Part shown: in pieces, positions 1-64,000 of the stretch
Layout of the letters: the number at the start of each line of letters is the position of its first letter
How positions within the stretch are numbered: the first letter of the stretch is position 1
Virus record (IMG/VR): IMGVR_UViG_3300009550_000008
Length of the DNA: 64,000 nt
From: a virus
Reading direction: 5' to 3' (one strand)
The notes under the pieces: generated by a model
Databases searched by the model: none
What the model was told of the DNA's origin: nothing
Seen by the model: the letters and a program-made list of their open reading frames with translations, nothing else
Program-made: the position numbers and the translations under genes

Positions 1-1
1 T

Positions 2-934
2 AAACATAATATTTCATTAAAGAAAGCTGGTGGTTCACAATTAATGTCTGCAAAGAAAGCTGAATTAATATCCACAGTAGAAGCTGCACAGGAAACCTAT
101 GGAAAAGCAAATAAGAAAGAGGTTGAAAATTTAGTCAATATCATGGAAAAGAAAATGGTTACATTGACTGAGAAAGACAGTGTGTCATCTATTGACGATA
201 TGAGAGAAAAGGAAAAACTAACACCCAAAGAAGCAGAACAGATTGCAGAAGTAGATGCAGCTCGTATAGGTGCAAAAGAAGTTGAAAATGAATTCAACAA
301 TGTGTTCTCGTCAGAAAAGTTTATGGGACATTTCTGCTTTGAAGCTGCAACTGGTAATGTAAAATTTAAAGACAACTGGCCAAGTGCAAATGTTGTATGT
401 ACATTTAATCCCGATCAAGCAAAACTGGAGAATGTATTAGTATTAGACTCACCCGAGGGTGCTGGTGTTAAACTTGCAAGAGGAAACTCTTTTTATGTTG
501 CATTTAAATCCACTGCTGGTTCTAAACCTTATCTCTCATTTAGAAGTAAGGCAAAAAGTAAGAAAGCAATGAAATCTGTAGTTAATGAAAGAACAGATTA
601 CCCTGATATACTTCCTTCATTAAGAACAATAATGATTGAAGAATTATCTAAAGGTGGATTACTTACAGAAGAAATGCAACAGTTAGATGAGTTTGCAATG
701 TTAAATAATCTAAAACAACAAGTAAGTGACTTCACAAATAAGGCAAAGAGTGTTATAATGAAGGTATGGAAAGGTATAATTGAGAGACTCAAGAAAGCTT
801 TTGCAATAATCAAGAAATTAGGTGGAAAGGCATTAAGAGCTCTTGCAAGATTTTTTGGTTTTGAAATAGGTAATGTTAGACTTACTAAAACAGGTGGAAT
901 GTATCCAGTAGACACTTTAATATTTAACAAATAA
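2..934 (+). CDS. Hypothetical phage protein, 5'-truncated; possible PD-(D/E)XK-like domain
   Basis: Frame is open from the window edge (KHNISLKKAGGSQLMS...); ISLK resembles the (D/E)xK motif region of nuclease-like proteins in T4-like phages. Confidence 0.5.
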   Translation, partial: KHNISLKKAGGSQLMSAKKAELISTVEAAQETYGKANKKEVENLVNIMEKKMVTLTEKDSVSSIDDMREKEKLTPKEAEQIAEVDAARIGAKEVENEFNNVFSSEKFMGHFCFEAATGNVKFKDNWPSANVVCTFNPDQAKLENVLVLDSPEGAGVKLARGNSFYVAFKSTAGSKPYLSFRSKAKSKKAMKSVVNERTDYPDILPSLRTIMIEELSKGGLLTEEMQQLDEFAMLNNLKQQVSDFTNKAKSVIMKVWKGIIERLKKAFAIIKKLGGKALRALARFFGFEIGNVRLTKTGGMYPVDTLIFNK

Positions 935-937
935 ATT

Positions 938-1552
938 ATGTATCAATTAGTTGAAGAAGCAATGAAGGTTCTCAGAGAACCAACCACAGATTTCGATTTT
1001 GAAAATCCACCCGAAGACCCAAAAGAGATCGAGAAAAACATGGCAGAAGCCATGGAACGATTTGGTGGTCTTGGTCTATCTGCAAACCAGTTAGGTTTAC
1101 CATATCGAGTGTTCGTCATGAGAACTGCAGATAGTGGTACTAGAGCATTCTTTAATCCTGAGATTACAAAGTTATCCAAAGAAACAGATTTAATGAAAGA
1201 AGGGTGCCTTTCTTTCCCCGATATATACTTAATGATAAAGAGACCTTCTGCAATTGAATTAGAATACTCAGATGCAGATGGAGAAAGACATACACTACAA
1301 TTAGAAGGAATGGGTTCTAGATGTGTTCAACACGAACTAGATCATTTAAATGGAATTATATTCCTTCAAAGAGCCTCTAAGTTAAAATTGGAAAGGGCTA
1401 TCAAGTCTAGACCTAAAGAGAGGAGAAAGAGATTAGATTATGAAAAAAGAATGGAAATTGCTAGACAACTCCAAAGTCTACAATCACAAAGTGATTCCGA
1501 TTCTGACGAAGGAAGAGTGCCAGAACCTGATTCAATGGCACAACAGTCATAG
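938..1552 (+). CDS. def: Peptide deformylase
   Basis: All three motifs present: GLGLSANQ, EGCLS, QHELDH. Confidence 0.95.
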   Translation: MYQLVEEAMKVLREPTTDFDFENPPEDPKEIEKNMAEAMERFGGLGLSANQLGLPYRVFVMRTADSGTRAFFNPEITKLSKETDLMKEGCLSFPDIYLMIKRPSAIELEYSDADGERHTLQLEGMGSRCVQHELDHLNGIIFLQRASKLKLERAIKSRPKERRKRLDYEKRMEIARQLQSLQSQSDSDSDEGRVPEPDSMAQQS

Positions 1553-2207
1553 ACATTTAGAAAAAGTCGGTTCACTAATAGATTATTGGGGCATCAGAAA
1601 GATGCATATCAAGAATGAGTACATTCGTCTCTTATTCCAAAAAGTCCAAAATCACTGTATAAGTGAAATCTACAATGCAACGGGACAAGTTTTCCATACT
1701 GAAATGGCAACTATGACTCGATGGCATATTGGTGGAGTACAAGACCCACACTTGGATACACTATCTAATGATGAGGTTCGAGAAGACCCTAATATCGAAA
1801 CAAAGGTTGCCTCAGGTGAGAAGTCACCATCTAGAGAATGGACAGTGATTGTATATTTAAATGATGATTACAATGGTGGTGAAACATATTTTCCACCTAC
1901 AGATTATTATCCATTTGGACACCAAGTCGAACCCGAGGTAGGTAGTGGATTTCTATTCCAAGGTATCTATCATGGCCATGGAGTATTCAAAGTTCGAAGA
2001 GCTCCAAGACACACCATTGCATGTTGGTTCACAGCTGACATCGATAAAGCTATGACAGAAAGACCCGTTGAAGATTTAGAACACAACGAGATCACTATCA
2101 GACAATTCTTAGACTATCAAGTCCAAGGTGGGTTATATAATACCGAAGACCTATCTAAAGACCCTGAAAGATGGGCAGAATATAAAAGATTATCTAAAAT
2201 CTCTTAA
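1440..2207 (+). CDS. 2OG-Fe(II) oxygenase (prolyl-hydroxylase-like)
   Basis: HLD ... IVYLNDDYNGGETYF ... HGV ... R-x-T; overlaps the 3' end of def by 113 nt. Confidence 0.85.
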   Translation: MKKEWKLLDNSKVYNHKVIPILTKEECQNLIQWHNSHRHLEKVGSLIDYWGIRKMHIKNEYIRLLFQKVQNHCISEIYNATGQVFHTEMATMTRWHIGGVQDPHLDTLSNDEVREDPNIETKVASGEKSPSREWTVIVYLNDDYNGGETYFPPTDYYPFGHQVEPEVGSGFLFQGIYHGHGVFKVRRAPRHTIACWFTADIDKAMTERPVEDLEHNEITIRQFLDYQVQGGLYNTEDLSKDPERWAEYKRLSKIS

Positions 2208-2216
2208 TCCCTATTA

Positions 2217-2293
2217 CTCCGTGTAGCTCAACTGGATAGAGCAACGGCCTTCTAAGCCGTAGGTTAGAGGTTCGAGTCCTCTCACGGAGGCCA
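2217..2293 (+). tRNA. tRNA-Arg (anticodon TCT)
   Basis: Acceptor CTCCGTG/CACGGAG, anticodon arm ACGGC-CT TCT AA-GCCGT, GGTTCGAGTCC T-arm, encoded CCA. Confidence 0.96.
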
Positions 2294-2302
2294 AATCAAG
2301 CC

Positions 2303-2332
2303 TTGACAATGCCTCAAGCTTTTTCATATAAT
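2303..2332 (+). promoter_or_regulatory. Sigma70-type early promoter
   Basis: (GCC)TTGACA-18 bp-TATAAT. Confidence 0.8.
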
Positions 2333-5529: not shown

Positions 5530-5559
5530 TTGACAATGCCCCTGGCTTTTTGAGATAAT
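5530..5559 (+). promoter_or_regulatory. Sigma70-type early promoter
   Basis: GGCCTTGACAATGCC, TTGACA-18 bp-(TGA)GATAAT. Confidence 0.75.
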
Positions 5560-6864: not shown

Positions 6865-7813
6865 GAAACCAGTCAATCTATTGAAAGGGGAACAATCACA
6901 GTTCCCCGTTCAGGTTGTGCCTGGCATGAGAGTTCTCAGATATGACTATGTCAGATTAGTTGACATCAATGCAACCAATCAGAACTGGGGTAGAATCAGT
7001 GGTGTTACAACAGCTGGTAGGGATGGAATCAGGAGAATGATTCAGGATGGAACATACTTACCTCAACACTTTGAACCACCAGTGATAGATCAGGATGGTA
7101 ATCTTATCGCTGGAAAGCACAGGTTCGATGCACATGACGCTGAAGGTGAAGAATACATGTGGGTTGCAGTTTGTGAATTCGATGATGATGATGCAAGAAA
7201 TACATATGCAAATGATGAGAATATGAGAAACACCTTCAAGACTATGCAGACGCCTGAAGATTTCATTTTTGCACATGCACAAATTGTTAAGAGAGGAGAC
7301 AAAGTAGCTAAAACTAAGAATGCAGTTAGTAATTACATCAAGAGAAATTATCCACAACTCCCTATGAATTATCCAAGTAGGTCAAAACTTGCCGAAGAGA
7401 TATTGATTACAGCTGGAGTTGATTTTGTACCGATTGAAATTATGACTGATGAGAAAATCATTTCTGAGTATTATGAAGAGTATGGAATCGATATTGTCGA
7501 AGACCCTTCTTGCATTTTAAAGAAATTAACTGGTGCAAAGGATTTAAAAAGGTCAGATAGATGGGCAAGACTTATGAGAGATTTGACTGATGGTATTTCA
7601 ACTGGTGTTAACTATACAGTTATCACTACATTTACTGGTGCAAACTCTGAGTCAATTCCTGAACTCAGGAAAACTTGTTTAGAGTTCTATGATGATATGA
7701 TCGAGAATGCAAAGAAGTTAATCACTGGACAAGCAAGAAAGAAATTAGGAAGTGTTAGCTTTATTTTCACTAAGCAACTTCCCGAAGATGAGGTGTTCAA
7801 TGAGATTAACTGA
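6848..7813 (+). CDS. ParB/Sulfiredoxin-like domain protein
   Basis: PPVIDQDGNLIAGKHRFDA resembles the ParB/Srx GxHR motif. Confidence 0.6.
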   Translation: MRMTTKKPVNLLKGEQSQFPVQVVPGMRVLRYDYVRLVDINATNQNWGRISGVTTAGRDGIRRMIQDGTYLPQHFEPPVIDQDGNLIAGKHRFDAHDAEGEEYMWVAVCEFDDDDARNTYANDENMRNTFKTMQTPEDFIFAHAQIVKRGDKVAKTKNAVSNYIKRNYPQLPMNYPSRSKLAEEILITAGVDFVPIEIMTDEKIISEYYEEYGIDIVEDPSCILKKLTGAKDLKRSDRWARLMRDLTDGISTGVNYTVITTFTGANSESIPELRKTCLEFYDDMIENAKKLITGQARKKLGSVSFIFTKQLPEDEVFNEIN

Positions 7814-15905: not shown

Positions 15906-15941
15906 CCAAAATAACTAAATACTTGTTTGTAGGAGAGAAAT

Positions 15942-16088: not shown

Positions 16089-16777
16089 AAAACTTTTGGA
16101 AGAAATTAGATGCATTCGGAATCACATTACTGTTTGCATTACTATTTTTTATCGCTATGGGTGCATATGCAGGCCCGTCAGATGACAACCATGTTCATGT
16201 CGAACAGGTAGGAAATGGTGGTGATGATGTATCACTAACTATCGCTCAGCTTGGTTATGGTAACAAAGTTGAATTTTCTTTTGCACACTCCGATAACATA
16301 TTTAATTTGACTCAGAATGGTTCAGGTAACTATGTTGGTTGGGTCTCATATTGGGGTTCAGGAAAAAATTGGGGTGGTGATGTAGATGGTACAGATAACA
16401 ATGAAGTTGTAGTACAATTTGATGGTGCAACATATGGTAGACACTTATGGGGCAACAATAATGATGTCGATGTATATCAAAATGGAGATCATACATTTAA
16501 CCTAGATGTTCATGCAGACGATACAAATGTAGAAGCCTGGCAAGAAGGTTCAGGAAGTCACTATGCACATTCATACTTCTATGGTACAGCAGATGGTTCA
16601 GATGTTGATCTAGAACAAAAAGGTAATGCAAATCATAATGCACAAATTAGGCTTCAAGGTACTGAACCCACAACACTAAATCTATTACAACAAGGTACAA
16701 CTAATCAGAGTTATAGTGTAACTCAAAACTGTTTTACAGTTGGTGGTTGTAGTCTAACTGTAACTCAAGGAAACTAA
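16073..16777 (+). CDS. Curlin-repeat protein (CsgA/CsgB-like)
   Basis: Signal peptide; QxGxxN-type repeats (AQLGYGN, TQNGSGN, EQKGNAN, QQGTTN); terminal CxxxxxC. Confidence 0.82.
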   Translation: MVDFLKNFWKKLDAFGITLLFALLFFIAMGAYAGPSDDNHVHVEQVGNGGDDVSLTIAQLGYGNKVEFSFAHSDNIFNLTQNGSGNYVGWVSYWGSGKNWGGDVDGTDNNEVVVQFDGATYGRHLWGNNNDVDVYQNGDHTFNLDVHADDTNVEAWQEGSGSHYAHSYFYGTADGSDVDLEQKGNANHNAQIRLQGTEPTTLNLLQQGTTNQSYSVTQNCFTVGGCSLTVTQGN

Positions 16778-19184: not shown

Positions 19185-19595
19185 ATGACGCATTTAGATA
19201 TATTTGGTCAATTCAGACCGTTCGCAATTGGATTTGATAGATACTTCGAAGACCTCGATAGACTATCTAATCTTTCACAACCCAACTACCCACCTTACAA
19301 TGTTGTAAAGGTTGACGATGAAAATTTCATTGTTGAACTTGCAGTTGCTGGTTTTGGTAAAAAAGATGTTTCTGTTACTAAAGAGAAGAATCTTCTTATC
19401 ATTGAGGGTAAAGTAGAAGACGCCGAAAAAGAATTCGTTCACAAAGGTTTGGCTTCTAGAGCATTCAAGAGATCATGGACTCTTGCAGACAATGTTGAAA
19501 TTGATTCTGCAGAGTTGAAAGACGGCATCTTGTCTGTTAGTTTAGTGAAGGTTATTCCCGAAGAGGATAAACCAATCTCTATAAAAATCTCTTAA
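19185..19595 (+). CDS. Small heat shock protein Hsp20 (IbpA-like)
   Basis: NYPPYNVVK, ELAVAGF, HKGLASRAF, AELKDGIL. Confidence 0.95.
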   Translation: MTHLDIFGQFRPFAIGFDRYFEDLDRLSNLSQPNYPPYNVVKVDDENFIVELAVAGFGKKDVSVTKEKNLLIIEGKVEDAEKEFVHKGLASRAFKRSWTLADNVEIDSAELKDGILSVSLVKVIPEEDKPISIKIS

Positions 19596-19661: not shown

Positions 19662-20183
19662 ATGTTATCAGTAGGAGAACAGTTCCCAAGTTTTACACTT
19701 AAGGGAATTAATGAAAACAACGAATTTGTTGATGTAGAAGTTAATGAAGGATATACGCCTTTGAAAAAAGACTGGTCTGTAGTTTACTTTTACCCGAAAG
19801 ACTTTACATTCATATGTCCAACAGAAATTGCTGGAATGGATATCTTAGTCGATCATGCAAATGTTGTTGGTATCAGTGGTGATAACGAGTTCTGTAAATT
19901 AGCATGGAAACAAGATAATGAGTTGATAGGTTCTATCAGACATTCACTTGCAGCTGATTGTGGACTTGGACTATCACATCAACTAGGTATCGTAGATGAT
20001 GAAAATGGTGTTTGTTATCGTGCAACATTCATTTTCGACAAAGACAGAGTCATTCAACATGCATCAATCAATGCATTAGACACTGGACGAAATGCACAGG
20101 AAGTTCTAAGAACTTTACAAGGATTACAAGCTGGTGGACTCACTGGTTGTGCATGGAACGAAGGTGATGAGTTTGTTGGTTAA
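19662..20183 (+). CDS. ahpC: Peroxiredoxin (AhpC)
   Basis: FYPKDFTFICPTE, RATFIFD, GRNAQEVLR. Confidence 0.93.
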   Translation: MLSVGEQFPSFTLKGINENNEFVDVEVNEGYTPLKKDWSVVYFYPKDFTFICPTEIAGMDILVDHANVVGISGDNEFCKLAWKQDNELIGSIRHSLAADCGLGLSHQLGIVDDENGVCYRATFIFDKDRVIQHASINALDTGRNAQEVLRTLQGLQAGGLTGCAWNEGDEFVG

Positions 20184-20233: not shown

Positions 20234-21487
20234 ATGTACTTTCAATATACTTTAGACGATTTAAAACAAAATTCTTCTCAGAAGAAATTCTCATATATTA
20301 CATTCTTTGCAGGCGGTGGTGGTTCATCGTGTGGATATAAACTCGCAGGTGGTGATGTTCGATACATGAATGAGTTCCAACAGATTCATGTTGACACTTA
20401 TCTTAAGAACTTCCCTGATACTGTACACGAATGTAAAGATATCAAACAAGTGACTGGTAAAGGCATTATGGAACTTACTGGTCTCAAACCATATGAACTT
20501 GATCTACTGGATGGGTCACCACCTTGTCCACCTTTCTCTATGGCTGGAACCAAGAGAGAAGGATGGGAACAAGAGAAGGTTGCATATGGAATGAAACAAC
20601 AAAACATCGAAGACCTTACATGGGAACAAATTAGAATTGCTGGTGAACTCAAACCCAAAGTAATTGTATGTGAGAATGTAAAAGGTCTCTCTATGGATTA
20701 TGCAAGAGATCATCTTAACAAGATGGTCACAGATTTTGAAGCACTAGGTTATTCAGTTGTATGGAAGATCATGAAAGGACATGAACATGGAGTACCTCAA
20801 AAGAGAGAAAGAGTATTCATGGTTGGTGTTCGTGATGATGTTCTAGAAGCAATTGGTAGACCTTGGATGACTCTAGGAAGTATCTTCCCTGAACCATCAG
20901 ATCAATATGCAACGATCAGTCAAGCAATTGATGATCTTGAAGATGATGAAGAGAATATCGAAGATGCTAAATACTTAGAACAAGCTATGAAAGATTCATC
21001 AAAAGGTCATTGGGTTCATGGATTTGAAAAACATCCTGATGAAAAGTTTGCAAACTGTACACCATGTAAAGGTATTGATGGTGTTGCAGATAAAGAGAAT
21101 ATGTCCTATGTTTCTATTGGAGATCATATTGTAAAACCTTGGTTCCAAGAGAACATTAGATTAGGACACATACCAGCGGAAGACGAGAAACATTCTTATT
21201 ATATGTCTAGGATAGTTCCAAAACATTTACCAGCTCATTCATTGACTGAACAAGGATGTCAACCTAAATTTATGGGTGGTAATCATTTCCATTACAACGG
21301 TAAGAGAATTTATACACCAAGGGAAATGGTAAGACTTATGTCACTACCTAACGATTATCAAATGACTGGTGATTACAATGATAAGGGTGCAAGGATTGGA
21401 TTAATGGTTGCACCACTATGCTTGTATTATCTAGTTGAAGAAATCAAAAAACAGATATTAGAACCATGGAACACATTGCAAAAGTAG
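20234..21487 (+). CDS. DNA (cytosine-5) methyltransferase
   Basis: FAGGGG (I), GSPPC (IV), ENV (VI), PQKRER (VIII), RLMSLP (IX). Confidence 0.95.
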   Translation: MYFQYTLDDLKQNSSQKKFSYITFFAGGGGSSCGYKLAGGDVRYMNEFQQIHVDTYLKNFPDTVHECKDIKQVTGKGIMELTGLKPYELDLLDGSPPCPPFSMAGTKREGWEQEKVAYGMKQQNIEDLTWEQIRIAGELKPKVIVCENVKGLSMDYARDHLNKMVTDFEALGYSVVWKIMKGHEHGVPQKRERVFMVGVRDDVLEAIGRPWMTLGSIFPEPSDQYATISQAIDDLEDDEENIEDAKYLEQAMKDSSKGHWVHGFEKHPDEKFANCTPCKGIDGVADKENMSYVSIGDHIVKPWFQENIRLGHIPAEDEKHSYYMSRIVPKHLPAHSLTEQGCQPKFMGGNHFHYNGKRIYTPREMVRLMSLPNDYQMTGDYNDKGARIGLMVAPLCLYYLVEEIKKQILEPWNTLQK

Positions 21488-22464
21488 ATCACGGTTTCAA
21501 AGAAACCTACGATAAGTGGAACGGAAAGTTCCTAGACAAATCATCATACGATGAAGTTATATCATCTATAGGAGTAGATGAGAAAGTAATTAAAGTAAGT
21601 AAACCAGTTGCATCTATTACAGGTGATATGGCTCCACTTGCATATATTGTTAAAGGTGAATACACTGGAGACAATTATCAGACTATTAAAGATACATTGT
21701 TTTCAATTGATGATGTCTCAACTATGAGAGCAAATGCATCAGGCCCAATCGATCATGAGGATATGAAAAAGAAAGGATTGATCGAAGGTGTACATTACAA
21801 ACTAAGAACACCTAACTCTTACTATCCACTTAAAAAGAATGGTAAGTTCAATCGTATTGCAGAAGCAAATGCAATTCATTCTGTATTGATAGGATATAAG
21901 AGAGGAAGATTTACAGGGATGATTAATCCTAGTGGTTGGATGAAGAAGAAATCTAATCAACAAAAGTGGGAAGTATTACAGAAGATTGCACCTCTTAACG
22001 AAGGTGCATTAAAGATCGCTGCTCCCGATGTGTGGCGTCAGCAAAGATCATTTGCAGACAATTATATTGAAAGTAAGTATCACATCGGGGGCGCACCTAT
22101 CACGGCTTTATCTGCAAACAGATATTCCAGTGAAGGTACTGCAAAAATGTCAGCACATCTAGATGGAAAAGATTTAGAGTTTGGATTGACAACAATGTGT
22201 GTTTTCAGGATTGGAGACTTCAAGGGTGCATATCTTTGTTTCCCTAGATACGGTCTTGCAATAGAAGCTGATGATGGTGATGTATTGATTGCAGATTCAA
22301 ATGAATTACATGGTGTTACACCTATCGAAGGAAATGGTGTGAGACTTTCATGTGTTGCATATTGTGATGAACATGTTGCAACAATGGGTATTGGTGGTAA
22401 ATCAGAAAACCCGATTGGCCCATCTAACAAAGATAAACATGGAAGTCTAGACGAGTTTTTTTAG
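21466..22464 (+). CDS. TET/JBP-family 2OG-Fe(II) dioxygenase (putative 5mC hydroxylase)
   Basis: AHLDGKD, GAYLCFPRYG, GDVLIAD..ELHGVTPI, RLSCVAY; overlaps the C5-MTase gene. Confidence 0.85.
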   Translation: MEHIAKVDHGFKETYDKWNGKFLDKSSYDEVISSIGVDEKVIKVSKPVASITGDMAPLAYIVKGEYTGDNYQTIKDTLFSIDDVSTMRANASGPIDHEDMKKKGLIEGVHYKLRTPNSYYPLKKNGKFNRIAEANAIHSVLIGYKRGRFTGMINPSGWMKKKSNQQKWEVLQKIAPLNEGALKIAAPDVWRQQRSFADNYIESKYHIGGAPITALSANRYSSEGTAKMSAHLDGKDLEFGLTTMCVFRIGDFKGAYLCFPRYGLAIEADDGDVLIADSNELHGVTPIEGNGVRLSCVAYCDEHVATMGIGGKSENPIGPSNKDKHGSLDEFF

Positions 22465-22465
22465 A

Positions 22466-23001
22466 TGATATACTTAATCGGTGGAGTACCATGTTCAGGT
22501 AAATCAACCCTGATGAGAGGTCTTATCTCTCGTTTAGAAGAACCTAAACTTGTAGAACCTATGCCTCTATTCAAATGTCAGGAACATGGTGACATTCTAG
22601 TATGTGGTCAGTATCCCGAAGGAGAAACATTCGGTGGTACAGATAGATTATCATATGGTGCAATACCACACTTTAGAGAATTTTGTGATGGTATCAGTAT
22701 TGGATATAAACATACTATTATAGAAGGTGATCGATTCTTTAGAGCAGAAGATATAGAATGGGTACTAGACAATCATGAATCAGAAGTTTACATTCTTACA
22801 GTTGACTCAGATGAAGAGAAACGAAGACACGAAGAACGACAAGATACTCAAACAGAGAAATGGTTACAGGGTCGTAGAAGTCAGATAGATAACATTCAAA
22901 AGAATTTCAATCTTATGGGAAGGTTAAATGTGGTCAACAACAGAGACATTCAAACTTCCCTAAGAATAGCTGATGAAATCTACGGGAAAATTATTTCATG
23001 A
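22466..23001 (+). CDS. P-loop kinase of the type linked to base-modification clusters
   Basis: GGVPCSGKST, GGTDRLS, IIEGDRF. Confidence 0.8.
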
Positions 23002-23573
23002 TTGTTCTTGTTCTAGGTGCTTCATGCAGTGGTAAGTCAACGATGTTAAATAATCTTTGTGATAGATTACATACTCCAAAAGAAGATATTTTTGAACCTC
23101 TTCCATTTTGGAAATGTAGAGAATACGGAGACATATTAAATGTTGAATCATATCCAATTAAGTATCCACCAAATCAAGTGTTCAATGGAACAGAAGTAAT
23201 AACTGCAGAGAACACTATCTATGATGGTGACTCAGGAGTTTCAGAGATTCCAAAGTATCAAGACTTCTGTAGATGGGCCGATTACTCATATGTACATACA
23301 CTTATAGAATGTGATATGTACTGGAAAAGTCAAGAGATACAATGGGTATTAGATAACCATGATGCACAAGCTTTTCTTTTAACAGTTGATTCGGATGAAG
23401 AACTTAGAAGACATAATGAAAGACATAGTACACAATCTGAGGAAGAAAAACTATTGTGTAAATTGCAGATAAATAATATACAAAAGAACATTAATGAACT
23501 TAATGTGAGAGAAAACAATACCACTGAATCTTCATTAAAAATTGAAGACGAGATTTATGCCAAAGTTATTTAA
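22998..23573 (+). CDS. Diverged paralogous P-loop kinase
   Basis: GASCSGKST; shares EPxPxxKCxExGDIL, WVLDNH, LTVDSDEE with the upstream gene. Confidence 0.75.
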   Translation: MIVLVLGASCSGKSTMLNNLCDRLHTPKEDIFEPLPFWKCREYGDILNVESYPIKYPPNQVFNGTEVITAENTIYDGDSGVSEIPKYQDFCRWADYSYVHTLIECDMYWKSQEIQWVLDNHDAQAFLLTVDSDEELRRHNERHSTQSEEEKLLCKLQINNIQKNINELNVRENNTTESSLKIEDEIYAKVI

Positions 23574-23871
23574 AGAAGTTTATAGGGTTGTAGAAAACCC
23601 ACATGAAACAGACGCTGGGATAGAGATCATCAGTGGAGAATGGGAGGGTTTAGTTTACCAGTACGGTGATGTACAATTCGAAGATGGTAAACCTCATTTG
23701 AATTTTAAGAGAACTATAAGAAGGTTACCTCAATCAGGTGACACTGTAGAAGACTTAGAAAAAAACGAGGAACTAAATAACCTTATGGGCGACATACTTG
23801 TAGAGTTAATACAAGAACAAATAGAGAGGGATAAAGAAATTGAACAAAGAAGTATTGAAGGAACAGATTAA
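23557..23871 (+). CDS. Conserved hypothetical T4-like phage protein
   Basis: GLVYQYGDV...MGDILVELI. Confidence 0.7.
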   Translation: MPKLFKEVYRVVENPHETDAGIEIISGEWEGLVYQYGDVQFEDGKPHLNFKRTIRRLPQSGDTVEDLEKNEELNNLMGDILVELIQEQIERDKEIEQRSIEGTD

Positions 23872-24295
23872 AAGACACGAAGGTGAGGTCTTAGAAGTCT
23901 ACGAAGATTCGTTAGGATATCTAACATTAGGCGTGGGTCACTTGATTCAGAAGTCAGACCCCGAATACGGACAACCAGCTGGAACTCCAGTTAGTCAAAA
24001 TGTAGTAGATTTATACTACACAGATGATTTTGATAAGCATGTCGATGAAACGATTCATGTATGTGAAAACAACAATATCGTTTTTGATGCATTACCTGAA
24101 AACATTCAACATGTTCTAGTGAATATGTGTTTCAACTTAGGTGCAAATCGATTAGGTAAATTCAGAAACATGTTAGCTGCAGTTTCTACATCTGATTGGA
24201 AAGAGATGGCAAGTCAGATGGAAGACAGCAGATGGTTCGGTCAAGTTGGTCGAAGATCAGTTGAGTTACAAGAAATGGTATTGGAGTTATCATGA
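23840..24295 (+). CDS. Lysozyme/endolysin (T4 lysozyme-like)
   Basis: RHEG...YEDSLGYLTLGVGH; NMCFNLG; SRWFGQVGRR. Confidence 0.9.
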   Translation: MNKEVLKEQIKRHEGEVLEVYEDSLGYLTLGVGHLIQKSDPEYGQPAGTPVSQNVVDLYYTDDFDKHVDETIHVCENNNIVFDALPENIQHVLVNMCFNLGANRLGKFRNMLAAVSTSDWKEMASQMEDSRWFGQVGRRSVELQEMVLELS

Positions 24296-29246: not shown

Positions 29247-30576
29247 AGAGTTTACACGGAAGTGTATTCCTTTTCTAAGGCCTGAGTATTTCACAGATAC
29301 ATCTGAAAGAACAATCTATGAATTTACATATGATTACTTTCAGAAGTATACTAAACCACCCACAATAGAAGCACTTCTCATAAATCTTGAGAACAGCACT
29401 TCCCTTAATGAGAAGACTCTCAAGGACACAAAATCTATTGTAAACGGTTTCGGTAGTGAAGAATCCCCACAGGAATGGCTGGTCGATGAGACAGAGCAGT
29501 GGTGCAAAGATAGAGCAATCTATATTGCAGTAATGGATTCAATCGAAGTGATCGATAAGAAGTCACAACGATCTACTGGTGAGATACCAGAGCTCTTAAA
29601 GGATGCACTCTCCGTGTCCTTTGATACACATATAGGACATGATGTATTAGAAGACGCGGACGATAGATTTGAATTCTATCATACGGAAGAAGAGAAGATT
29701 CCATTTGATCTAGAATACTTCAACAAAATCACAAAGGGTGGATTACCCAATAAGACACTGAACATTTGTCTTGCAGGCACAGGTGTTGGTAAGTCATTGT
29801 TCATGTGTCATATGGGTTCTGCAGCTTTGATGATGGGTAAGAATGTATTGTATATCACACTAGAAATGAGTGAAGAAAGAATTGCAGAGAGAATCGATGC
29901 AAACACTTTGAACATTCCTATGAAAGAACTTCCTGATATATCTAAGAAGATGTATGATAAGAAGATCGAGAAACTCAAGAACAAAACAAAAGGTAAACTA
30001 ATTGTAAAAGAGTATCCAACTGCAGCTGCACATGTCGGACATTTCAGACATCTATTGCAAGAGTTAGATATCAAGAAAGACTTCAAACCCGATATCATCT
30101 TTATCGATTATCTAAACATATGTTCATCACATAGAATCAGGCCTGGTTCAGGTGCAAACTCTTACACTTTGGTCAAGAGTATTGCAGAAGAACTTAGAGG
30201 ACTTGCAGTCGAATATGATGTACCTATTATGTCTGCAACTCAGACTACAAGATCAGGATACGGTTCGACAGATATTGGACTTGAAGATACATCAGAATCC
30301 TTTGGATTACCAGCGACAGCTGATATGATGTTTGCATTAATCACATCTGATGAACTCGAAGAACTAGATCAGTTGGTTGTAAAACAGTTGAAGAACAGAT
30401 ACAATGACCCAACTATATTCAAGAGATTTGTTATCGGTGTAGATAGATCAAGAATGAAACTATATGATTGTGAACAAGAAGCACAAGAAGAACTCTTAGA
30501 CTCAGGGGATGACTATGATGATAGTGTTCCAGTCGCCGACAGAGGAAGAGACAGATATTCGGACTTTAAGATATGA
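29197..30576 (+). CDS. 41: Replicative DNA helicase (T4 gp41)
   Basis: [37 protein letters not shown]. Confidence 0.96.
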
Positions 30577-35196: not shown

Positions 35197-35410
35197 ACAC
35201 GACAACGGAGTCCTCGAACAGGGGACAGATGAGATAAGAATATCTTATCAAGAGGATACGCCTGGTCAATCAGTTGATGAGTACATCAAAGAGAAAGAAA
35301 AGTCATTCCACGAAACAAAAGAGACAATCAAGAAAAGATTCAAAGATGTATTCGGTAATCCATTGAAGGACTATCCATACAACGAGGAGTTCGAAGTTGA
35401 AGACCTTTAG
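35182..35410 (+). CDS. Hypothetical protein
   Basis: EQGTDE...DTPGQ motif. Confidence 0.6.
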
Positions 35411-45276: not shown

Positions 45277-47579
45277 ATCAGAACGGTAATGGTGGAATCA
45301 AAGTTGTCAAGTCAGACGGAAGTAAAGTATCAATCGATCTAGATAAGATTCACAGAATGGTAGAGAAAGCCTGTAGGAATATTACAGGTGTATCAGAATC
45401 GATGATTGAAATGAACAGTGGTCTTCAATTCTATGAAGGTATATCTACACGGGAGATTCAATCTATATTGGTTAAATCTGCACATGACTTGATTGATGTT
45501 ACTAATCCTAATTACCAGTTTGTAGCTGCAAGACTATTACTATTTGCAATTCAGAAACAAGTATTCAATACCAAGTGGAAGGACAGTGAAATCTATCCAC
45601 CACTTGATGATATCATCAGAAGGAACATTGACGCTGGTGTATATGACTCTCAGATTCTAGAACAGTATGATGAGGATGAGATCAATCGATGTAACAGTTT
45701 TATTAAACATTCAAGAGATTTAAACTTTACCTATGCTGGACTACAACAGATTGTAGACAAGTATTTGGTACAAGATAGATCAAGTGGTGAGGTATTTGAG
45801 ACACCACAATTTATGTACATGCTTATTGCAATGACATTATTTCAACATTACGACAAAGAGGTCAGACTAGACTATGTCAAACGATACTATGATGCCATAT
45901 CAAATTTCAAAATTAACATACCGACACCTATCATGGCAGGGGTCAGAACTCCACTCAGACAATTTGCAAGCTGTGTTCTCGTTGACTCCGATGATTCACT
46001 ACAGAGTATATTCTCCAGTGACCATGCGATTGGAAAGTATGTTGCACAACGAGCTGGGATTGGAATTAACGCTGGGAGAATTAGAGGAATTGGCTCTAAA
46101 ATTAGGGGAGGTGAAGTCCAACATACAGGAGTTATCCCATTCCTTAAGAAGTTTGAAAGCACAGTTAGGTGTTGCACACAAAATGGAGTCAGAGGAGGTT
46201 CAGCAACCGTCCACTTCCCAATCTGGCACCAAGAAATCGAAGACATCCTTGTCCTCAAAAACAACAAAGGAACCGAAGACAACAGAGTTCGTAAGTTGGA
46301 CTACTCAATACAACTTTCCCAAATCTTTTATCAAAGATTTTTGGAAAACGGAGAAATAACTTTATTCTCTCCACATGATGTGCCTGGCTTGTATGAAGCA
46401 TTTGGTACAGATGAGTTCGATGAATTGTATACAAAGTATGAGAATGCATATTCAATACCTAAGACAAAGATAGGTGCAAGAGAACTCTTTACAGACTTAT
46501 TGAAAGAACGAGCAGAGACTGGCCGTATCTACATTATGAATATAGATCATAGTAATACTCATAGTTCATTTAAAGACAAAGTGAACATGAGTAATCTATG
46601 TCAAGAGATAACATTACCTACAGACCCAATCGATCATATCGATGGAGAGGGTGAGATTGCATTGTGTATACTATCTGCAGTCAATGTAGGTATTGTTAAG
46701 GAAGAAGAAATGGAATCTCTTTGTGACCTAGCAGTGAGAGGACTTGAAGAACTGATAGATTTCCAAGAATATCCAGTAAAAGCTGCAGAACGATCAACCC
46801 TTGCAAGACGAAGTCTTGGTATTGGTTATATCGGACTGGCACATTTCCTTGCAAAAAACAAGGTAAAGTACGATGACCCTAAAGCTTTAGAACTGGTACA
46901 CGATCTTACAGAGAGGTTTCAATTCTATCTTCTTAAATCGTCAAACAAAATTGCACAAGAGAAAAGTGCTTGTGCATGGTTTGATAGAACAAAGTATGCA
47001 GATGGGATACTTCCCATTGACACATACAAAGATTCCGTTGACGAACTTGTTAAACCAAAATACAAGATGGACTGGGAAGGACTTAGAAAGGATATCCTTG
47101 CACATGGACTAAGACATAGTACATTGACTGCACAGATGCCGTCTGAGTCGTCTAGCGTGGTCTCTAATGCAACAAATGGTATTGAACCACCAAGAGATCA
47201 TCTAAGTGTTAAGAAGAGTAAGAAAGGAACCCTTAAACAGGTTGTACCACAATACTCTTTATTGAAGAACTCATACACCTTACTATGGGATATGCCTGAC
47301 AATACAGGTTATATTAACATAGTTGCAGTGATGCAGAAGTTTTTCGATCAAGCAATTTCAGGTAATTGGTCATACAATCCTGAAATGTATGATAACAATG
47401 AAGTACCAGTTTCGGTAATGGCAAAAGACTTATTGACTACATATAAATACGGGTGGAAAACATCTTATTACCACAACACAATGGATGGTAAAGTAGAAGA
47501 TGTTATGGTTGAAGAACAACCCGTGATGGATGACCCTTTCGAGGGTAGTGAGGAAGACTGCGATGCCTGTGCGATTTGA
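45273..47579 (+). CDS. nrdA: Ribonucleotide reductase class Ia alpha subunit
   Basis: ATP cone, FASC, SNLCQEI, C-terminal CDAC. Confidence 0.97.
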   Translation: MNQNGNGGIKVVKSDGSKVSIDLDKIHRMVEKACRNITGVSESMIEMNSGLQFYEGISTREIQSILVKSAHDLIDVTNPNYQFVAARLLLFAIQKQVFNTKWKDSEIYPPLDDIIRRNIDAGVYDSQILEQYDEDEINRCNSFIKHSRDLNFTYAGLQQIVDKYLVQDRSSGEVFETPQFMYMLIAMTLFQHYDKEVRLDYVKRYYDAISNFKINIPTPIMAGVRTPLRQFASCVLVDSDDSLQSIFSSDHAIGKYVAQRAGIGINAGRIRGIGSKIRGGEVQHTGVIPFLKKFESTVRCCTQNGVRGGSATVHFPIWHQEIEDILVLKNNKGTEDNRVRKLDYSIQLSQIFYQRFLENGEITLFSPHDVPGLYEAFGTDEFDELYTKYENAYSIPKTKIGARELFTDLLKERAETGRIYIMNIDHSNTHSSFKDKVNMSNLCQEITLPTDPIDHIDGEGEIALCILSAVNVGIVKEEEMESLCDLAVRGLEELIDFQEYPVKAAERSTLARRSLGIGYIGLAHFLAKNKVKYDDPKALELVHDLTERFQFYLLKSSNKIAQEKSACAWFDRTKYADGILPIDTYKDSVDELVKPKYKMDWEGLRKDILAHGLRHSTLTAQMPSESSSVVSNATNGIEPPRDHLSVKKSKKGTLKQVVPQYSLLKNSYTLLWDMPDNTGYINIVAVMQKFFDQAISGNWSYNPEMYDNNEVPVSVMAKDLLTTYKYGWKTSYYHNTMDGKVEDVMVEEQPVMDDPFEGSEEDCDACAI

Positions 47580-50821: not shown

Positions 50822-51107
50822 ACAAAAGAACTTATTAGACCTTGCAATTAGTCATGCTAAGGCACTTAGCGTCGATTCTAAGGACGCTATAGTAACTATT
50901 AAACGATTACCACCACAATTCTCTCAGAAGGGTCTTATAGAGTACCCTAGAACCCTCGGAAAAAGAACTTATATCGATATATTCATCAAAATGGATGAAG
51001 AAAAAGAGATCACACTTGCACATGAAATGATGCATGTCAAACAGGTGTTAATTGACGGCGTAATCGATGAAAATGAGGCATATTTGTACGAAAAAACGGC
51101 CATTTAG
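50799..51107 (+). CDS. Small HEXXH metallopeptidase-like protein
   Basis: TLAHEMMHVKQ...ENEAY. Confidence 0.7.
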   Translation: MKMEIYCKQKNLLDLAISHAKALSVDSKDAIVTIKRLPPQFSQKGLIEYPRTLGKRTYIDIFIKMDEEKEITLAHEMMHVKQVLIDGVIDENEAYLYEKTAI

Positions 51108-51110: not shown

Positions 51111-51140
51111 TTGACAATGGGCCGGGCTTTGTACTATAAT
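51111..51140 (+). promoter_or_regulatory. Sigma70-type early promoter
   Basis: GGCC-TTGACA-18 bp-TATAAT; ATG 6 nt later. Confidence 0.8.
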
Positions 51141-52363: not shown

Positions 52364-52746
52364 TGCAACAGATGTTAATCACATTAATACTTGTTCTTGG
52401 TGTAGGTTCTTATTACCTATACAATCAGAATGTTACTCTCAAAGAGAATAACACCAAATTAGAATATGCAATTGCTGAACAACAGTCAGCGATGGAAGCA
52501 CTAAGAGAATCATATGAATTACAAGGTAAATCTTTGTTGAATATGAGTAGAAGGAATGCAGAGATAGAACAGGAGAAAGCTGAATATCTTGCAATCTTTA
52601 GTAGACACAATTTAGATTTACTTGCATTGAAGAAGCCTGGCATGATAGAACTCAGGTTTAACAATGGAAGTGAAGATGTAATGGAGACAATGGAAGATGA
52701 AACAGAAGACCTTTATAAGCTTACTGTCCCTGACACTACTGATTAG
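52363..52746 (+). CDS. Putative inner-membrane spanin (Rz-like)
   Basis: N-terminal TM, coiled coil, LALKKPGMIE; overlaps a lipoprotein gene. Confidence 0.65.
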   Translation: MQQMLITLILVLGVGSYYLYNQNVTLKENNTKLEYAIAEQQSAMEALRESYELQGKSLLNMSRRNAEIEQEKAEYLAIFSRHNLDLLALKKPGMIELRFNNGSEDVMETMEDETEDLYKLTVPDTTD

Positions 52747-54630: not shown

Positions 54631-55235
54631 TGCCAAAGCAAAGAGTACAAGTAATACACAATGATACTGATGCACCAAAGAAAGCTGGTGATGGTAACTT
54701 TTTGATTGTTCATGATGAGGCAGTCAATCCAGCCATGTGTGCAGAGATCATAGAAAGGTTTGAAGAGATACCACTTGTCGAAGTAGAAGCTCACGGTGGT
54801 AATAAGTTCTTACCAGTAGATGAGTCATATCATGGTGTAACACATAGATATGAATCTCAAGGTAGAATACACGGTAACATATTTCCAGGCCATCTCTTTA
54901 ATGACATATTTGATATGGTAGGATTTGCATTACCAAAGGGTATGGAGTTTGGTGAAGTTAATTATGTACAGATTATAAAGTATCCCGAAGGTTCATTCTT
55001 TCCATGGCATAAAGATGTCGCAGATGATCGTGATACGGGAACAGCAATATTAATGTTAAATGACAACTTTGTAGGTGGTCAATTAAATGTAGCTGGTCAT
55101 AGGTTCTTGACCAAGCAGGGAACTATCATAGGATTTAACAATCCTACTAAAGTTTTCCATAATGTAGAACCAATATATAAGGGGAGTCGATACTGTTTAG
55201 CAATATGGTTCGGTCTCGCATTAGAAGAAGAATAA
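54630..55235 (+). CDS. 2OG-Fe(II) oxygenase
   Basis: WHKD, LNDNFVGG, FHNVEPI..GSRY. Confidence 0.88.
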   Translation: MPKQRVQVIHNDTDAPKKAGDGNFLIVHDEAVNPAMCAEIIERFEEIPLVEVEAHGGNKFLPVDESYHGVTHRYESQGRIHGNIFPGHLFNDIFDMVGFALPKGMEFGEVNYVQIIKYPEGSFFPWHKDVADDRDTGTAILMLNDNFVGGQLNVAGHRFLTKQGTIIGFNNPTKVFHNVEPIYKGSRYCLAIWFGLALEEE

Positions 55236-55472: not shown

Positions 55473-56073
55473 AATCGGATTTGTACATGTACCACGAACA
55501 GGTGGTACGAGTGTAGAACACGCCCTCATGAAAAAGTATCCTCAAGTGGTACAACTTCATGCAAATAAGTTCTATGATAGACCAATTATAAAAGTTATAT
55601 CAGTACATACACTGAAACTGCCAGGCGGTGAGTTGGAATATCAAAAGAAACATGCAACACACGATGAGTTATGGGAAGTAGCAAAGAACTATAAGTTCTA
55701 TGCAACTGTAAGACATCCCTTGAGACGATTAGAGTCGATGTATAGACTACTGACATTTTCTCAAACAGATGGAGTCCCTTGGACAACATTAGAGTTTAAT
55801 GAATGGGTATATAATCTAGTAGAGAATTATACCATGATGGAAGAACAGGACATATTAGATAGTTCTATGTTCCATCTAACACAATCTGCAATGATAGGTA
55901 ATGCAGAATGGCATAAGACAGAGGAAGGTACTATATGGGAAGCACTCGATATAGAACCAAGACATGATTATAAATTGTCTGACCAACCTATCGATTGCAA
56001 TTGGAGTAGTGAATCACTGCAAATGATAAGGAATTATTATGCAGAAGATTTTGAAAGATTTAGTTATAGATAA
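55453..56073 (+). CDS. Sulfotransferase family protein
   Basis: FVHVPRTGGTS (5'-PSB), VRHPLRRLESMY (3'-PB), YYAEDFERFSY. Confidence 0.85.
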   Translation: MLFHQSKIGFVHVPRTGGTSVEHALMKKYPQVVQLHANKFYDRPIIKVISVHTLKLPGGELEYQKKHATHDELWEVAKNYKFYATVRHPLRRLESMYRLLTFSQTDGVPWTTLEFNEWVYNLVENYTMMEEQDILDSSMFHLTQSAMIGNAEWHKTEEGTIWEALDIEPRHDYKLSDQPIDCNWSSESLQMIRNYYAEDFERFSYR

Positions 56074-60292: not shown

Positions 60293-60499
60293 TTCTATTA
60301 TTTATTCTGTATATAATAGGAGATATTGAGAAAAATAATGCAGAATAGGGTTAGAAAAGATTATGTGCGAAAAGTGCCTTTTGGTGCTTGTGTTCGGGGA
60401 GGCAAATCACATATTTATTTTGGAGTCAAGAGCCCCGAGAGGGTCTCGGAGGCATGCTGAGTACGGCTCAGAGAGCGGGGCAGTCCTTCGGCCAGGGCC

Positions 60500-62451: not shown

Positions 62452-62726
62452 TGTATGATATAACTGAGAAAGGTCAACGACAATATAAAAGAGTCGTGAG
62501 ATTGATATGGGGATTATATATTCTCATACCCGCTTTGTTTTTAATAACGGGATGTTCTACTGTAGAAGTATTGGATGGACTTTGTTATAACGATAAAGAT
62601 GGGACATACATATGTCCTACAGAAGAAGTACCGATTGAACATCAACAACAAGATCAATGGGAACAGTGTGAACCCTTTTTAAATCATGACGCAGAAGCAT
62701 GGTCTAACTGTATGATGATAGCATAG
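62451..62726 (+). CDS. Putative lipoprotein
   Basis: Hydrophobic stretch with lipobox ITGC. Confidence 0.55.
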   Translation: MYDITEKGQRQYKRVVRLIWGLYILIPALFLITGCSTVEVLDGLCYNDKDGTYICPTEEVPIEHQQQDQWEQCEPFLNHDAEAWSNCMMIA

Positions 62727-62800
62727 ATGGATATAATCTTTTATCTATTAACCATTGTGTTTCTATATACATTATATCGAATCTACAATGATAATAATAA

Positions 62801-62998
62801 TTGGCCATCATGAGAGTATTGCTAGATAACTACGGTGACACTCGAATCTTTTATGATCGACCTTATGGATATAAGCGTTATCATATTGAATGGGACGATG
62901 GGAACTGCTCGATGTTCTCAGGGTTATGGTACTCAGAAGAGAGAGTCAGGGAGATAGTAAAGAATGGGAGACAGAGTTTAATTAGAACGACTAAATAA
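62801..62998 (+). CDS. Hypothetical protein
   Basis: RPYGYKRY motif. Confidence 0.55.
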   Translation: MAIMRVLLDNYGDTRIFYDRPYGYKRYHIEWDDGNCSMFSGLWYSEERVREIVKNGRQSLIRTTK

Positions 62999-63002
62999 CT
63001 GT

Positions 63003-63209
63003 ATGGACTTCTTGATGGATATTTTATTATTACCTTACACATTGTTAGTGTGGGGATTGAAATACATTGTTGCAATTGGTTTGTGGTATTTGTTTTTCAA
63101 TTGGTTGGTGCAAGCTGTAGATACATTTGATTGGGAAGAATATCTTCCAAGACGCAAGAAGAAATATAAACACGATTATGGAGAAGACCCCGAGGATTAC
63201 ATTCTATGA
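63003..63209 (+). CDS. Small membrane protein
   Basis: Hydrophobic N-half; TAAATA upstream. Confidence 0.55.
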   Translation: MDFLMDILLLPYTLLVWGLKYIVAIGLWYLFFNWLVQAVDTFDWEEYLPRRKKKYKHDYGEDPEDYIL

Positions 63210-63382
63210 GTGATGAATTAATATTAATCCACATTGGATTTATCGTTGCATTGGTATACACCGTGTTTCGATCAGGAGAAAAATCAGGACGAGTACAAAT
63301 GGTTGAGGATATGCTTGACCGTGGTCTTATAACCGAAACAGACTTGGTTAATAAATACAATATTAAAGACAAGCATACTTAA
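63206..63382 (+). CDS. Small membrane protein (not in ORF track)
   Basis: 58 aa, ATGA-coupled. Confidence 0.5.
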   Translation: MSDELILIHIGFIVALVYTVFRSGEKSGRVQMVEDMLDRGLITETDLVNKYNIKDKHT

Positions 63383-63397
63383 ACACATTATTATATT

Positions 63398-64000
63398 ATG
63401 AAAATTATTGGATACAACTCATCCCACGAAACATCCCTATGTCAGTTTGATTCTGATACATGGGACTTAGACTTTCTTTTCGAAGAAGAAAGGTTTAGAC
63501 GAGTCAAGCAATGGACACCCGAACCACCACAACATCAGTTGTTGTGTATCGATAGAGAAGTCATACAGACACCCGATCATTTTATTGGATGCTCTTTTGA
63601 TCGAAGAGAATTCGTTCATGACTTGGGTGGTCTTGAATGGAACAGAGATTATCTTAAGTACAATAAGAAACTCAATCGTCAACTATTAGACTTCATTGAA
63701 CAGGAACAAATGACTGAGGATAGATTGATTGAGATGAATTCTACATTCCCGAATGTTTTCACTGAGTTTAATCTAGATAAACTTAAGAAGGATGACGGAC
63801 AAGCGAGGGATGACTTTCTTCATTCTACTGTCGCTGAACAGCTGTTCCTCGAAGAGTTTGTTTACGAAATTCAACATCATCTTTACCATGCAGAGTGTGG
63901 TTATTGGTTCAGTCCTTGGAGAGAGAAAGAGTCTGCAATTGCTATCGTATGTGATGGTGGTGGTGCAAAGTTATATCATGAGAAAGGATTCCCGAACTAT
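63398..64000 (+). CDS. Carbamoyltransferase (NodU/CmcH family), N-terminal part, runs off the window (not in ORF track)
   Basis: MKIIGYNSSHETSLC...FEEERFRRVK...HHLYHAECGYWFSP...AIVCDGGG. Confidence 0.85.
   Translation, partial: MKIIGYNSSHETSLCQFDSDTWDLDFLFEEERFRRVKQWTPEPPQHQLLCIDREVIQTPDHFIGCSFDRREFVHDLGGLEWNRDYLKYNKKLNRQLLDFIEQEQMTEDRLIEMNSTFPNVFTEFNLDKLKKDDGQARDDFLHSTVAEQLFLEEFVYEIQHHLYHAECGYWFSPWREKESAIAIVCDGGGAKLYHEKGFPNY

Follow-up and report, generated by a model that had tools for sequence, protein, structure and literature searches.

Introduction

Phages either lose restriction sites or methylate them, and orphan or multispecific methylases are found, for example, in the B. subtilis phages SPR and phi3T. 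A further group of phage C5 cytosine methyltransferases (C5-MTs) is associated with a TET dioxygenase, and Burke et al. 2021 (PNAS, PMC8256090) showed that these enzymes act at GpC. Clade I methylates GC[C/T/G] but not GCA, and oxidation to 5-hydroxymethylcytosine (5hmC) proceeds in a single step. Its genes adjoin those of a heat-shock protein (HSP), a redoxin, and a P-loop kinase or a glycosyltransferase, and its enzymes have an extra insert in the target recognition domain (TRD) relative to clade II. In clade II, a DNA polymerase gene precedes the methyltransferase gene, and clade IIa acts strictly on GC[C/T]. Here we analyse a C5-MT/TET cassette, and the restriction sites of the genome around it, in a 64-kb stretch of DNA of a T4-like marine phage that has not been cultured (IMG/VR record IMGVR_UViG_3300009550_000008), hereafter called the window, which means the whole stretch at its full length.

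The role of the TET-associated GpC mark had stayed open after this biochemistry. The specificities were measured in E. coli, and the restriction-site content of the phage genomes was not analysed in that work. A preprint (bioRxiv 10.1101/2023.12.21.572611) states that genome-wide protection by a GpC-limited mark "seems unlikely" and leaves open whether phage or host DNA is the target of the enzymes.

The window has a G+C content of 37%, and its plus strand holds nearly all genes. Compared with the T4-like marine phage Melnitz and the pelagimyophages, its protein matches are strong and its nucleotide matches are weak. Its cassette shares with the clade I/A clusters of Burke et al. (e.g. contigs 43 and 88) the layout of HSP, redoxin, C5-MT, TET and P-loop kinase; both are on marine virome-type contigs and both have the TRD insert, a likeness drawn from the published descriptions. 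The window differs from those examples in having two paralogous kinases and no glycosyltransferase.

Flank-dependent restriction sites in the window

Motifs were counted exactly on both strands of the window and compared with 300 codon-preserving shuffles, in which synonymous codons were permuted within each gene so that the proteins and the per-gene codon usage were kept. Values are written as observed/expected, and a site is called covered when it is overlapped by GpC and uncovered when it is not. The genome-wide tests drew on the window, related IMG/VR contigs and cultured relatives.

When the sites are split by GpC overlap in this way, as an earlier note on the window had proposed, CCWGG is found at 15/9.8 covered and 0/22.7 uncovered (minimum in any shuffle, 12), and CCAGA at 9/9.7 covered and 1/79.7 uncovered. 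Each of the 15 CCWGG sites is preceded by G or followed by C, and nine of the ten CCAGA sites are GCCAGA or TCTGGC (binomial p values for the flank bias, 1.5e-8 and 1.9e-8, respectively). Ten CCWGG sites have one covered strand (8.3 expected) and five have two (2.3 expected), and sites with neither strand covered number 0 (20.6 expected). Flank tables indicate that rescue is due to a 5′ G or a 3′ C alone and to no other flank, and that it is strand-symmetric. A maximal-order Markov model agrees with the codon shuffles on the motifs of the window. The earlier listing of about 15 CCWGG sites, all flanked by GpC, proved to be exhaustive, with three coordinates off by one base, and the one exception to the CCAGA rule, previously placed near 29586, lies at 29587. 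The surviving sites are as follows (CCWGG from the exact count, CCGG and CGACG from the flank tables, CCAGA from both).

5541..5545, CCWGG kept as CCTGGC, one strand covered
6920..6924, CCWGG kept as GCCTGGC, both strands covered
16536..16540, CCWGG kept as GCCTGGC, both strands covered
30142..30146, CCWGG kept as GCCTGG
33320..33324, CCWGG kept as CCAGGC
33356..33360, CCWGG kept as GCCTGG
34705..34709, CCWGG kept as GCCTGG
34969..34973, CCWGG kept as CCTGGC
35261..35265, CCWGG kept as GCCTGG
38828..38832, CCWGG kept as GCCTGG
46383..46387, CCWGG kept as GCCTGGC, both strands covered
52636..52640, CCWGG kept as GCCTGGC, both strands covered
54885..54889, CCWGG kept as CCAGGC
55621..55625, CCWGG kept as GCCAGGC, both strands covered
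60492..60496, CCWGG kept as GCCAGG
29587..29591, plus strand, the single CCAGA without GpC overlap (TACCAGAG)
51122..51125, the single CCGG of the window, kept as GCCGG
50870..50874, minus strand, the single CGACG of the window, kept as CGACGC with cover in a GCG context

Sites that GpC cannot cover are absent, and their avoidance is visible in codon choice. GGATC occurs at 0/78.5, while GATC is common (188/235) and persists only within the hexamers AGATCA, AGATCG and CGATCA. Asp-Pro pairs use GAC in 45 of 45 cases, although GAT is the commoner Asp codon overall (866 vs 395). Similarly, GGWCC is found at 0/32.9, while GGSCC, which is always covered, is enriched (24/12.2), and Gly is encoded by GGC or GGG in every one of the 16 Gly-Pro pairs, although GGT and GGA together predominate overall (990 vs 176). 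The earlier observations on both dipeptides and on these motifs hold exactly. CCSGG has a count of 1.

An unbiased k-mer scan yielded additional purged motifs. ACGT is wholly absent (0/98) and is the most depleted tetranucleotide of the window, which is consistent with the rule because GpC cannot cover it. CCGG (1/29) and CGACG (1/34) survive only in the flanked forms listed above, and five of the six CTGAAG sites (6/40) are flanked by GpC (covered 5/12.5, uncovered 1/27.5). AGATCT (0/24), TGATCA (2/23), AGTACT (0/14), ACTAGT (0/9) and GTGCAC (0/6) are also depleted. The list of likely host specificities given earlier (GGATC, GGNCC, CCWGG/CCNGG and CCAGA) was incomplete, since ACGT, CCGG, CGACG, CTGAAG, AGATCT, TGATCA and GTGCAC belong to it too. 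The conditional footprint in the window is confirmed as real and lies far beyond chance.

Replication in relatives and in phage Melnitz

IMG/VR contains 126 relatives of the window methyltransferase, of which 80 loci (969 kb, 58-99% identity) were kept and pooled by identity tier; a TET gene is present in all 80. Uncovered CCWGG sites number three in these loci, against about 290 expected from codon shuffles and 662 from the Markov model, and covered sites are at or above expectation. The sites with 0, 1 and 2 covered strands number 3, 55 and 67 (expected 284, 85 and 5.9), and the window and its relatives alike show a strong preference for CCWGG sites with cover on both strands. GGWCC occurs seven times instead of about 440. 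The excess of GGSCC is two- to three-fold over the codon shuffles and about four-fold over the Markov model. Only some of the lineages purge ACGT, CCAGA, GATC and CTGAAG, as expected if host defences differ, and GCCAGA copies persist in every lineage that purges CCAGA.

The Methylophilales phage Melnitz (MZ577097; Buchholz et al. 2022, PMC9004378), whose host is OM43, belongs to the same family and has a collinear T4-like genome. Over its whole genome, CCWGG is found at 68/25 covered and 0/64 uncovered, GGWCC at 0/62, CCGG at 15/22 covered and 0/46 uncovered, and CCTCC at 13/23 covered and 3/132 uncovered; GGSCC has 60 copies, all of which overlap GCY. Its methyltransferase is 54% identical to that of the window, and the cassette lies just downstream of the DNA polymerase gene, which is the clade II layout, unlike the clade I layout of the window. 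Gene 6 of Melnitz (L081:5208-6194), annotated as "hypothetical protein", is a TET/JBP homologue with 55% identity to the window TET, and this cultured phage therefore has an unrecognised C5-MT/TET pair; the Melnitz paper (PMC9004378) mentions only a "type II methylase".

GpC contexts of tolerated sites

The earlier note had proposed one GpC rule for its four observations. It explains all four, and CCGG, CGACG and CTGAAG in addition, but GpC in a GCA context is not protective. The notion that any GpC protects is ruled out, since GTGCAC, CCTGCA, YGCGCR and, outside clade I, CGCG are purged. GTGCAC occurs at 0/~120 in the relatives, 0/31 in the window's own clade and 0/18 in Melnitz. In the window's clade, CCTGCA is found at 4/104 but at 35/12.5 when flanked by GCC, and GATCGC at 18/22 when the next base is Y and 1/22 when it is R. 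In Melnitz, one and the same cytosine of WCCTGC is kept with a +1 Y (66/81) and purged with a +1 R (1/108); CTGCAG is kept with a GCY flank (14/20, otherwise 0/41), and so is GCGC (64/65 with the flank vs 0/14 without). For the window's clade, WCCTGC was rejected as a +1 test, being about three-fold depleted there regardless of cover; CCTGCA is the cleaner motif in that clade.

CGCG separates the clades. Its observed/expected ratio (O/E) is 1.0 in the window and 0.7-1.0 in identity tiers A-C, and 0-0.14 in Melnitz (1/54), in relatives with an SPPY-motif methylase or without any module (described below), and in the cultured relative HTVC008M. The tolerated context is therefore GC[C/T], plus GCG in the window's clade, and GCA is not protective; the rule in Melnitz is GC[C/T] only, since CGCG is purged.

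The GpC steps themselves are skewed. TGCA is over-represented 1.5-fold (TTGCAA 2.45x, CTTGCA 2.55x) in the window, in L001-L075 and in the long SPPY-class contig G001 (L158-L165). In the same sequences, AGCA (0.5-0.7x) and CGCA (0.3-0.6x) are under-represented to an equal extent on the two strands. Outside the window's clade and the SPPY class, the TGCA excess and AGCA deficit are not marked, and Melnitz shows them weakly or not at all; the CGCA deficit is partly shared by module-less relatives. GCY-context GpC steps are 30-45% under expectation overall. These skews possibly reflect a cost imposed by the mark or the evasion of nucleases that depend on modification; no simple rule was found that relates over- or under-representation of NGCN to the number of modifiable strands.

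Modification cassette of the window

Genes were called by a Pfam profile search of the window proteins with family cut-offs applied. The order is HSP20, AhpC/redoxin, C5-MT, TET, two P-loop proteins, lysozyme and DNA polymerase.

19185..19595, plus strand, HSP20 (PF00011, E 1.5e-17), neighbour on the left and a marker of the gene order that Burke 2021 gives for clade I/A
19662..20183, plus strand, AhpC/redoxin (PF00578, E 7e-22), left border of the variable modification island as mapped in relatives
20234..21487, plus strand, C5 cytosine DNA methyltransferase, similar to Burke clade I and proposed as the enzyme that writes the mark (PF00145, E 9e-51)
21466..22464, plus strand, TET/JBP-type 2-oxoglutarate-Fe(II) dioxygenase, predicted to convert 5-methylcytosine (5mC) to 5hmC (PF12851, E 3.7e-13)
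22465..23001, plus strand, P-loop kinase-like protein 1, candidate 5hmC kinase (weak Pfam Ploopntkinase3 match)
22998..23573, plus strand, P-loop kinase-like protein 2 (weak generic P-loop NTPase matches)
23840..24295, plus strand, phage lysozyme (PF00959), right border of the island by synteny in relatives
24558-27074, DNA polymerase, after the lysozyme gene

The PF00145 match of the methyltransferase spans model positions 2-324 of 324. The catalytic SPPC of motif IV (context DGSPPCPPF) is at residues 94-97 and ENV at 147-149. The TRD has a 21-residue insert relative to the Melnitz enzyme, which is the sole stand-in here for a clade II layout and is not one of Burke's own sequences. The TET gene overlaps the stop codon of the methyltransferase gene; its product scores 49.5 bits against PF12851 (cut-off 34.9) and has an HLD motif at 231. 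Kinase-like protein 1 matches Ploopntkinase3 with an E value of 1.4e-4 at 21.9 bits, under the cut-off of 27, and is retained in the cassettes of many relatives. The two kinase-like proteins are paralogues with 43% identity (blastp).

Upstream of the cassette, a curli-type secretion region (12650-18779) includes a curlin-repeat protein and, downstream of the curli genes, a gene for a CHASE2 domain with a class III cyclase (16908-18779). The annotations of Melnitz and HTVC008M also include this module of curli and CHASE2 cyclase, which PMC9004378 discusses. Melnitz, HTVC008M and Mosig group with the window by curli CsgF/G with the CHASE2 cyclase and by HSP20. The window has genes for tRNA-Arg(tct) and tRNA-Ala(tgc), at 2217-2293 and 56075-56150; tRNA-Arg(tct) is also found in Melnitz.

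Variable island in relatives with and without the cassette

A variable island separates the redoxin gene from the lysozyme and polymerase genes, and it has five contents among the relatives.

Content 1, C5-MT and TET, with or without kinases
Content 2, a 482-amino-acid methylase (P0001) with a TSPPYF motif and a partial PF01555 match
Content 3, a DruA-like protein, a cytidylyltransferase and others, in one case with a TET-associated glycosyltransferase
Content 4, a DruA-like gene alone
Content 5, empty

The C5-MT/TET cassette also has a second insertion site, between homologues of the window genes at 9430-10371 and 10636-11049 (L039, L047 and L055).

Relatives with empty or DruA-only islands lack the conditional pattern: uncovered CCWGG is found at 5/9 and 22/30 and GGWCC at 4/7 and 19/27, and TGCA is near expectation. 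They avoid GGCC and GGSCC instead (GGCC O/E 0.3-0.5, a range that includes HTVC008M). HTVC008M has no module and no GCY-conditional pattern (CCWGG 68/66, GGWCC 49/50, GGSCC 0/12, GGCC 0.30x). Sites with an internal GCC are purged in module-less phages and enriched in module-bearing ones. Module-less relatives also purge motifs, namely GGCC, CGCG, AGCT, ACGT and GATC, indicating that host restriction pressure on the family is real.

HTVC008M (NC_020484; L166, L167) has GATC at 53/208, yet GGATC/GATCC is near expectation (71/85). GATC thus persists nearly exclusively within GGATC(C), a conditional footprint that belongs to a different modification or enzyme specificity.

The methylase of content 2 is represented by one gene.

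L164:10386-11834, minus strand, P0001, SPPY-motif methylase of 482 amino acids with TSPPYF and DTSCGWG motifs

Homologues are found in L098-L122, L133, L142-L144 and L157. Compared with N4-cytosine methyltransferases, which carry an SPP[YF] motif IV and a SAM-binding motif, P0001 has a PF01555 match of 27.2 bits that barely exceeds the cut-off and spans 70 of the 221 model positions; no relative was found in the PDB by sequence, and no homologue in cultured pelagimyophages. The SPPY methylase occupies the exact place of the window's C5-MT/TET cassette, and the two are mutually exclusive at this locus, as expected for functional substitutes. Its carriers purge CGCG and GCCGG.

Three short contigs (L140, L148 and L155) have an island with a DruA-like protein (PF14236), a cytidylyltransferase-like protein and a 444-amino-acid protein, in which neither a methylase motif nor a Pfam match was found. 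L155 also carries a TET-associated glycosyltransferase (PF20691), with no TET gene on the contig.

Origin of the footprint

Direct observations comprise the motif counts and their replication, the genes present, and the way the footprint correlates with the content of the island. From them we consider it likely that post-replicative cytosine modification by the phage at GC[C/T/G] shields the restriction sites that it overlaps, and that unshieldable sites have been purged by selection. After replication, the phage C5-MT, which we infer to be the writer, would mark its own DNA at GCC, GCT and probably GCG, but not at GCA. The adjacent TET dioxygenase would then oxidise 5mC to 5hmC, and the two P-loop kinases would probably phosphorylate 5hmC as a handle for further tailoring. 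A marked cytosine in a restriction site, on one strand or both, would block cleavage by enzymes presumed to come from the host population, so that covered sites would be neutral and kept at or above the expected frequency. Sites that can never be covered (ACGT, GGATC, GGWCC, AGATCT and TGATCA) would be lethal targets, as would unflanked copies of CCWGG, CCAGA, CCGG, CGACG and CTGAAG, and selection would have removed them largely via synonymous codon choice. The shielding form may be 5mC, 5hmC, or a phosphorylated or further tailored base, among which the sequence cannot discriminate.

The strongest argument that the methyltransferase of the cassette writes the mark is that the footprint correctly reads the +1 preferences of two enzyme clades. 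As far as can be judged from sequence, the window agrees with the published clade I specificity, with CGCG tolerated and both GTGCAC and CCTGCA purged. The footprint would also address both doubts of the preprint: the phage genome has evolved as if its own GC[C/T/G] cytosines were shielded, and the coverage gap of a GpC-limited mark appears to be closed by purging every unshieldable site.

Several points weigh against this reading. SPPY-class phages without a C5-MT show the full GCY-conditional footprint (G001 and 21 further loci), and within the family the pattern therefore does not require the cassette. G001 is a 151-kb contig, about 83% complete, in which both insertion sites are empty, and neither it nor the other SPPY-class contigs gave a PF00145 match or a tblastn match to the methyltransferase or TET. 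Nevertheless, G001 has CCWGG at 52/20 covered and 0/71 uncovered, CCAGA at 15/23 vs 2/176, GCGC at 35/37 vs 0/13.5, and GTGCAC at 0/21. L140, L148 and L155 also show the footprint, yet no methylase is seen on these short contigs. In the window's clade, some GpC-containing motifs are depleted regardless of cover (WCCTGC 9/59, CGCA 0.33x, AGCC 0.53x). GCG cover rescues CGACG only weakly (4/27 vs 2/136). The likely hosts of the family, SAR11 and OM43, have streamlined genomes, and the more than ten restriction specificities are assumed to be spread over the host population. Modification of the DNA of the window phage and of Melnitz is a prediction from base sequence. The earlier proposal that the MTase/TET cassette lies behind the pattern is thus supported in that the cassette is present and the interpretation fits, but not as the sole cause, since the SPPY class shows the pattern too. 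The suggested comparison of relatives gave the same divided answer: empty or DruA-only islands and HTVC008M lack the pattern, and the SPPY class keeps it.

These contigs, above all those of the SPPY class, together with the doubt expressed in the preprint about a purely anti-restriction role of GpC-limited marks, could mean that the protective mark comes from another enzyme common to the footprint-positive relatives, with the cassette serving packaging, regulation or the marking of host DNA. We regard this as unlikely, because the island content predicts the footprint, which is present with C5-MT and TET or with the SPPY methylase and absent where the island is empty or holds only the DruA-like gene. 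Moreover, CGCG tolerance follows the clade of the methyltransferase (O/E 0.7-1.0 for the clade I type vs 0-0.14 for the clade II type or SPPY), in agreement with the specificities measured by Burke et al. 2021, and the mutual exclusivity of the two methylase types at one locus is what functional substitutes would give.

T4 nucleases destroy cytosine-containing DNA, and the purge might likewise be self-inflicted, if phage nucleases destroy unmodified host DNA at these motifs and the phage genome keeps only shielded copies of them. CCWGG, GGWCC, CCGG and GTGCAC are indeed purged in every module-bearing lineage, including Melnitz with its streamlined OM43 host, and module-less relatives do not purge them; the annotation of Melnitz includes several nuclease genes. 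However, a few phage nucleases could not account for the purge of more than ten distinct motifs in the window. ACGT, CCAGA, GATC and CTGAAG switch on and off between close lineages, as varying host defences would predict, and the purge of GGCC, CGCG, AGCT, ACGT and GATC in module-less relatives shows real host restriction pressure. This alternative ranks next and is also improbable. Chance, codon usage, amino-acid composition or mutation bias without any modification can be regarded as already refuted: GCC encodes alanine, and flanks can be biased by codon context, but no shuffle that preserves proteins and codon usage approaches the observed values, the two strands show the bias equally and only for a 5′ G or 3′ C, and module-less related phages of similar composition lack the pattern.

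The simplest reading of the SPPY class is that the C5-MT/TET and SPPY writers would be functional substitutes with the same target. A genome that keeps dozens of GCY-dependent sites would make a matching target of any replacement writer obligatory. As a broader and more tentative proposal, which we hold to be quite possible though not the more probable outcome, these phages would follow a two-layer anti-restriction strategy, in which a cheap cytosine mark of 2-3 bases is combined with a purge of the remaining sites. The specificity would then be locked in, and unrelated writers (C5-MT with TET and kinase; SPPY-type, possibly N4-cytosine) could interchange only if both target GC[C/T]. The GCY deficit and the excess of TGCA, the only GpC context unmodifiable on both strands, would record the cost of the mark or the avoidance of modification-dependent nucleases.

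The cassette type and its GpC preference are already published, but the conditional footprint appears to be new, as our literature search found no paper on flank-conditional restriction-site avoidance in these phages. Such a footprint would provide a sequence-only readout of phage modification specificity, to the +1 base, in uncultured viruses. It could list the restriction specificities that circulate in the hosts of abundant marine phages, and it could reveal modification enzymes that share a target without being homologous, of which the SPPY methylase is an example.

Comparison with known systems

The closest solved structure to the window methyltransferase is SpCmoX of Synechococcus phage S-B43 (PDB 8YF3, E 8e-70), a GC-motif DNA cytosine C5-carboxymethyltransferase (PMC12783734). 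The window and Melnitz enzymes share the SPPC motif with SpCmoX, and the window enzyme probably also shares its recognition of a GC motif, but Arg350 of SpCmoX, which binds the carboxymethyl group of carboxy-S-adenosylmethionine (Cx-SAM), is replaced by Leu in both (IGLMVAPL in the window vs VGRMVPPL in the alignment). The gene neighbour also differs, being TET in the window and the CmoY ligase for SpCmoX. A carboxymethyltransferase function of the window and Melnitz enzymes is ruled out by the replacement of this diagnostic Arg.

Nanopore data revealed GC-motif modification in S-B43's own DNA (PMC12783734). In the S-B43 genome (MN018232; L169-L179), unflanked CCGG is found at 0/141, and all eight survivors are flanked by GpC, against 47 flanked sites expected. 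S-B43 thus serves as a positive control, with the same kind of footprint in a phage in which GpC modification of its DNA has been demonstrated. GACGTC (1/24) and GTCGAC (0/23) are also purged in S-B43.

M.CviPI of a Chlorella virus, cited in Burke 2021, is likewise a viral orphan C5 methyltransferase, but it acts at any GpC, whereas the footprint in the window excludes GCA. Compared with the 5-hydroxymethylpyrimidine DNA kinases (P-loop kinases, P-LK, of phiW-14, SP10, ViI and M6), kinase-like protein 1 of the window has a match below the cut-off and kinase-like protein 2 has generic P-loop matches only. Finally, in contrast to classical avoidance, the loss of sites and their modification appear to be combined site by site in the window, which gives the flank-dependent signature.

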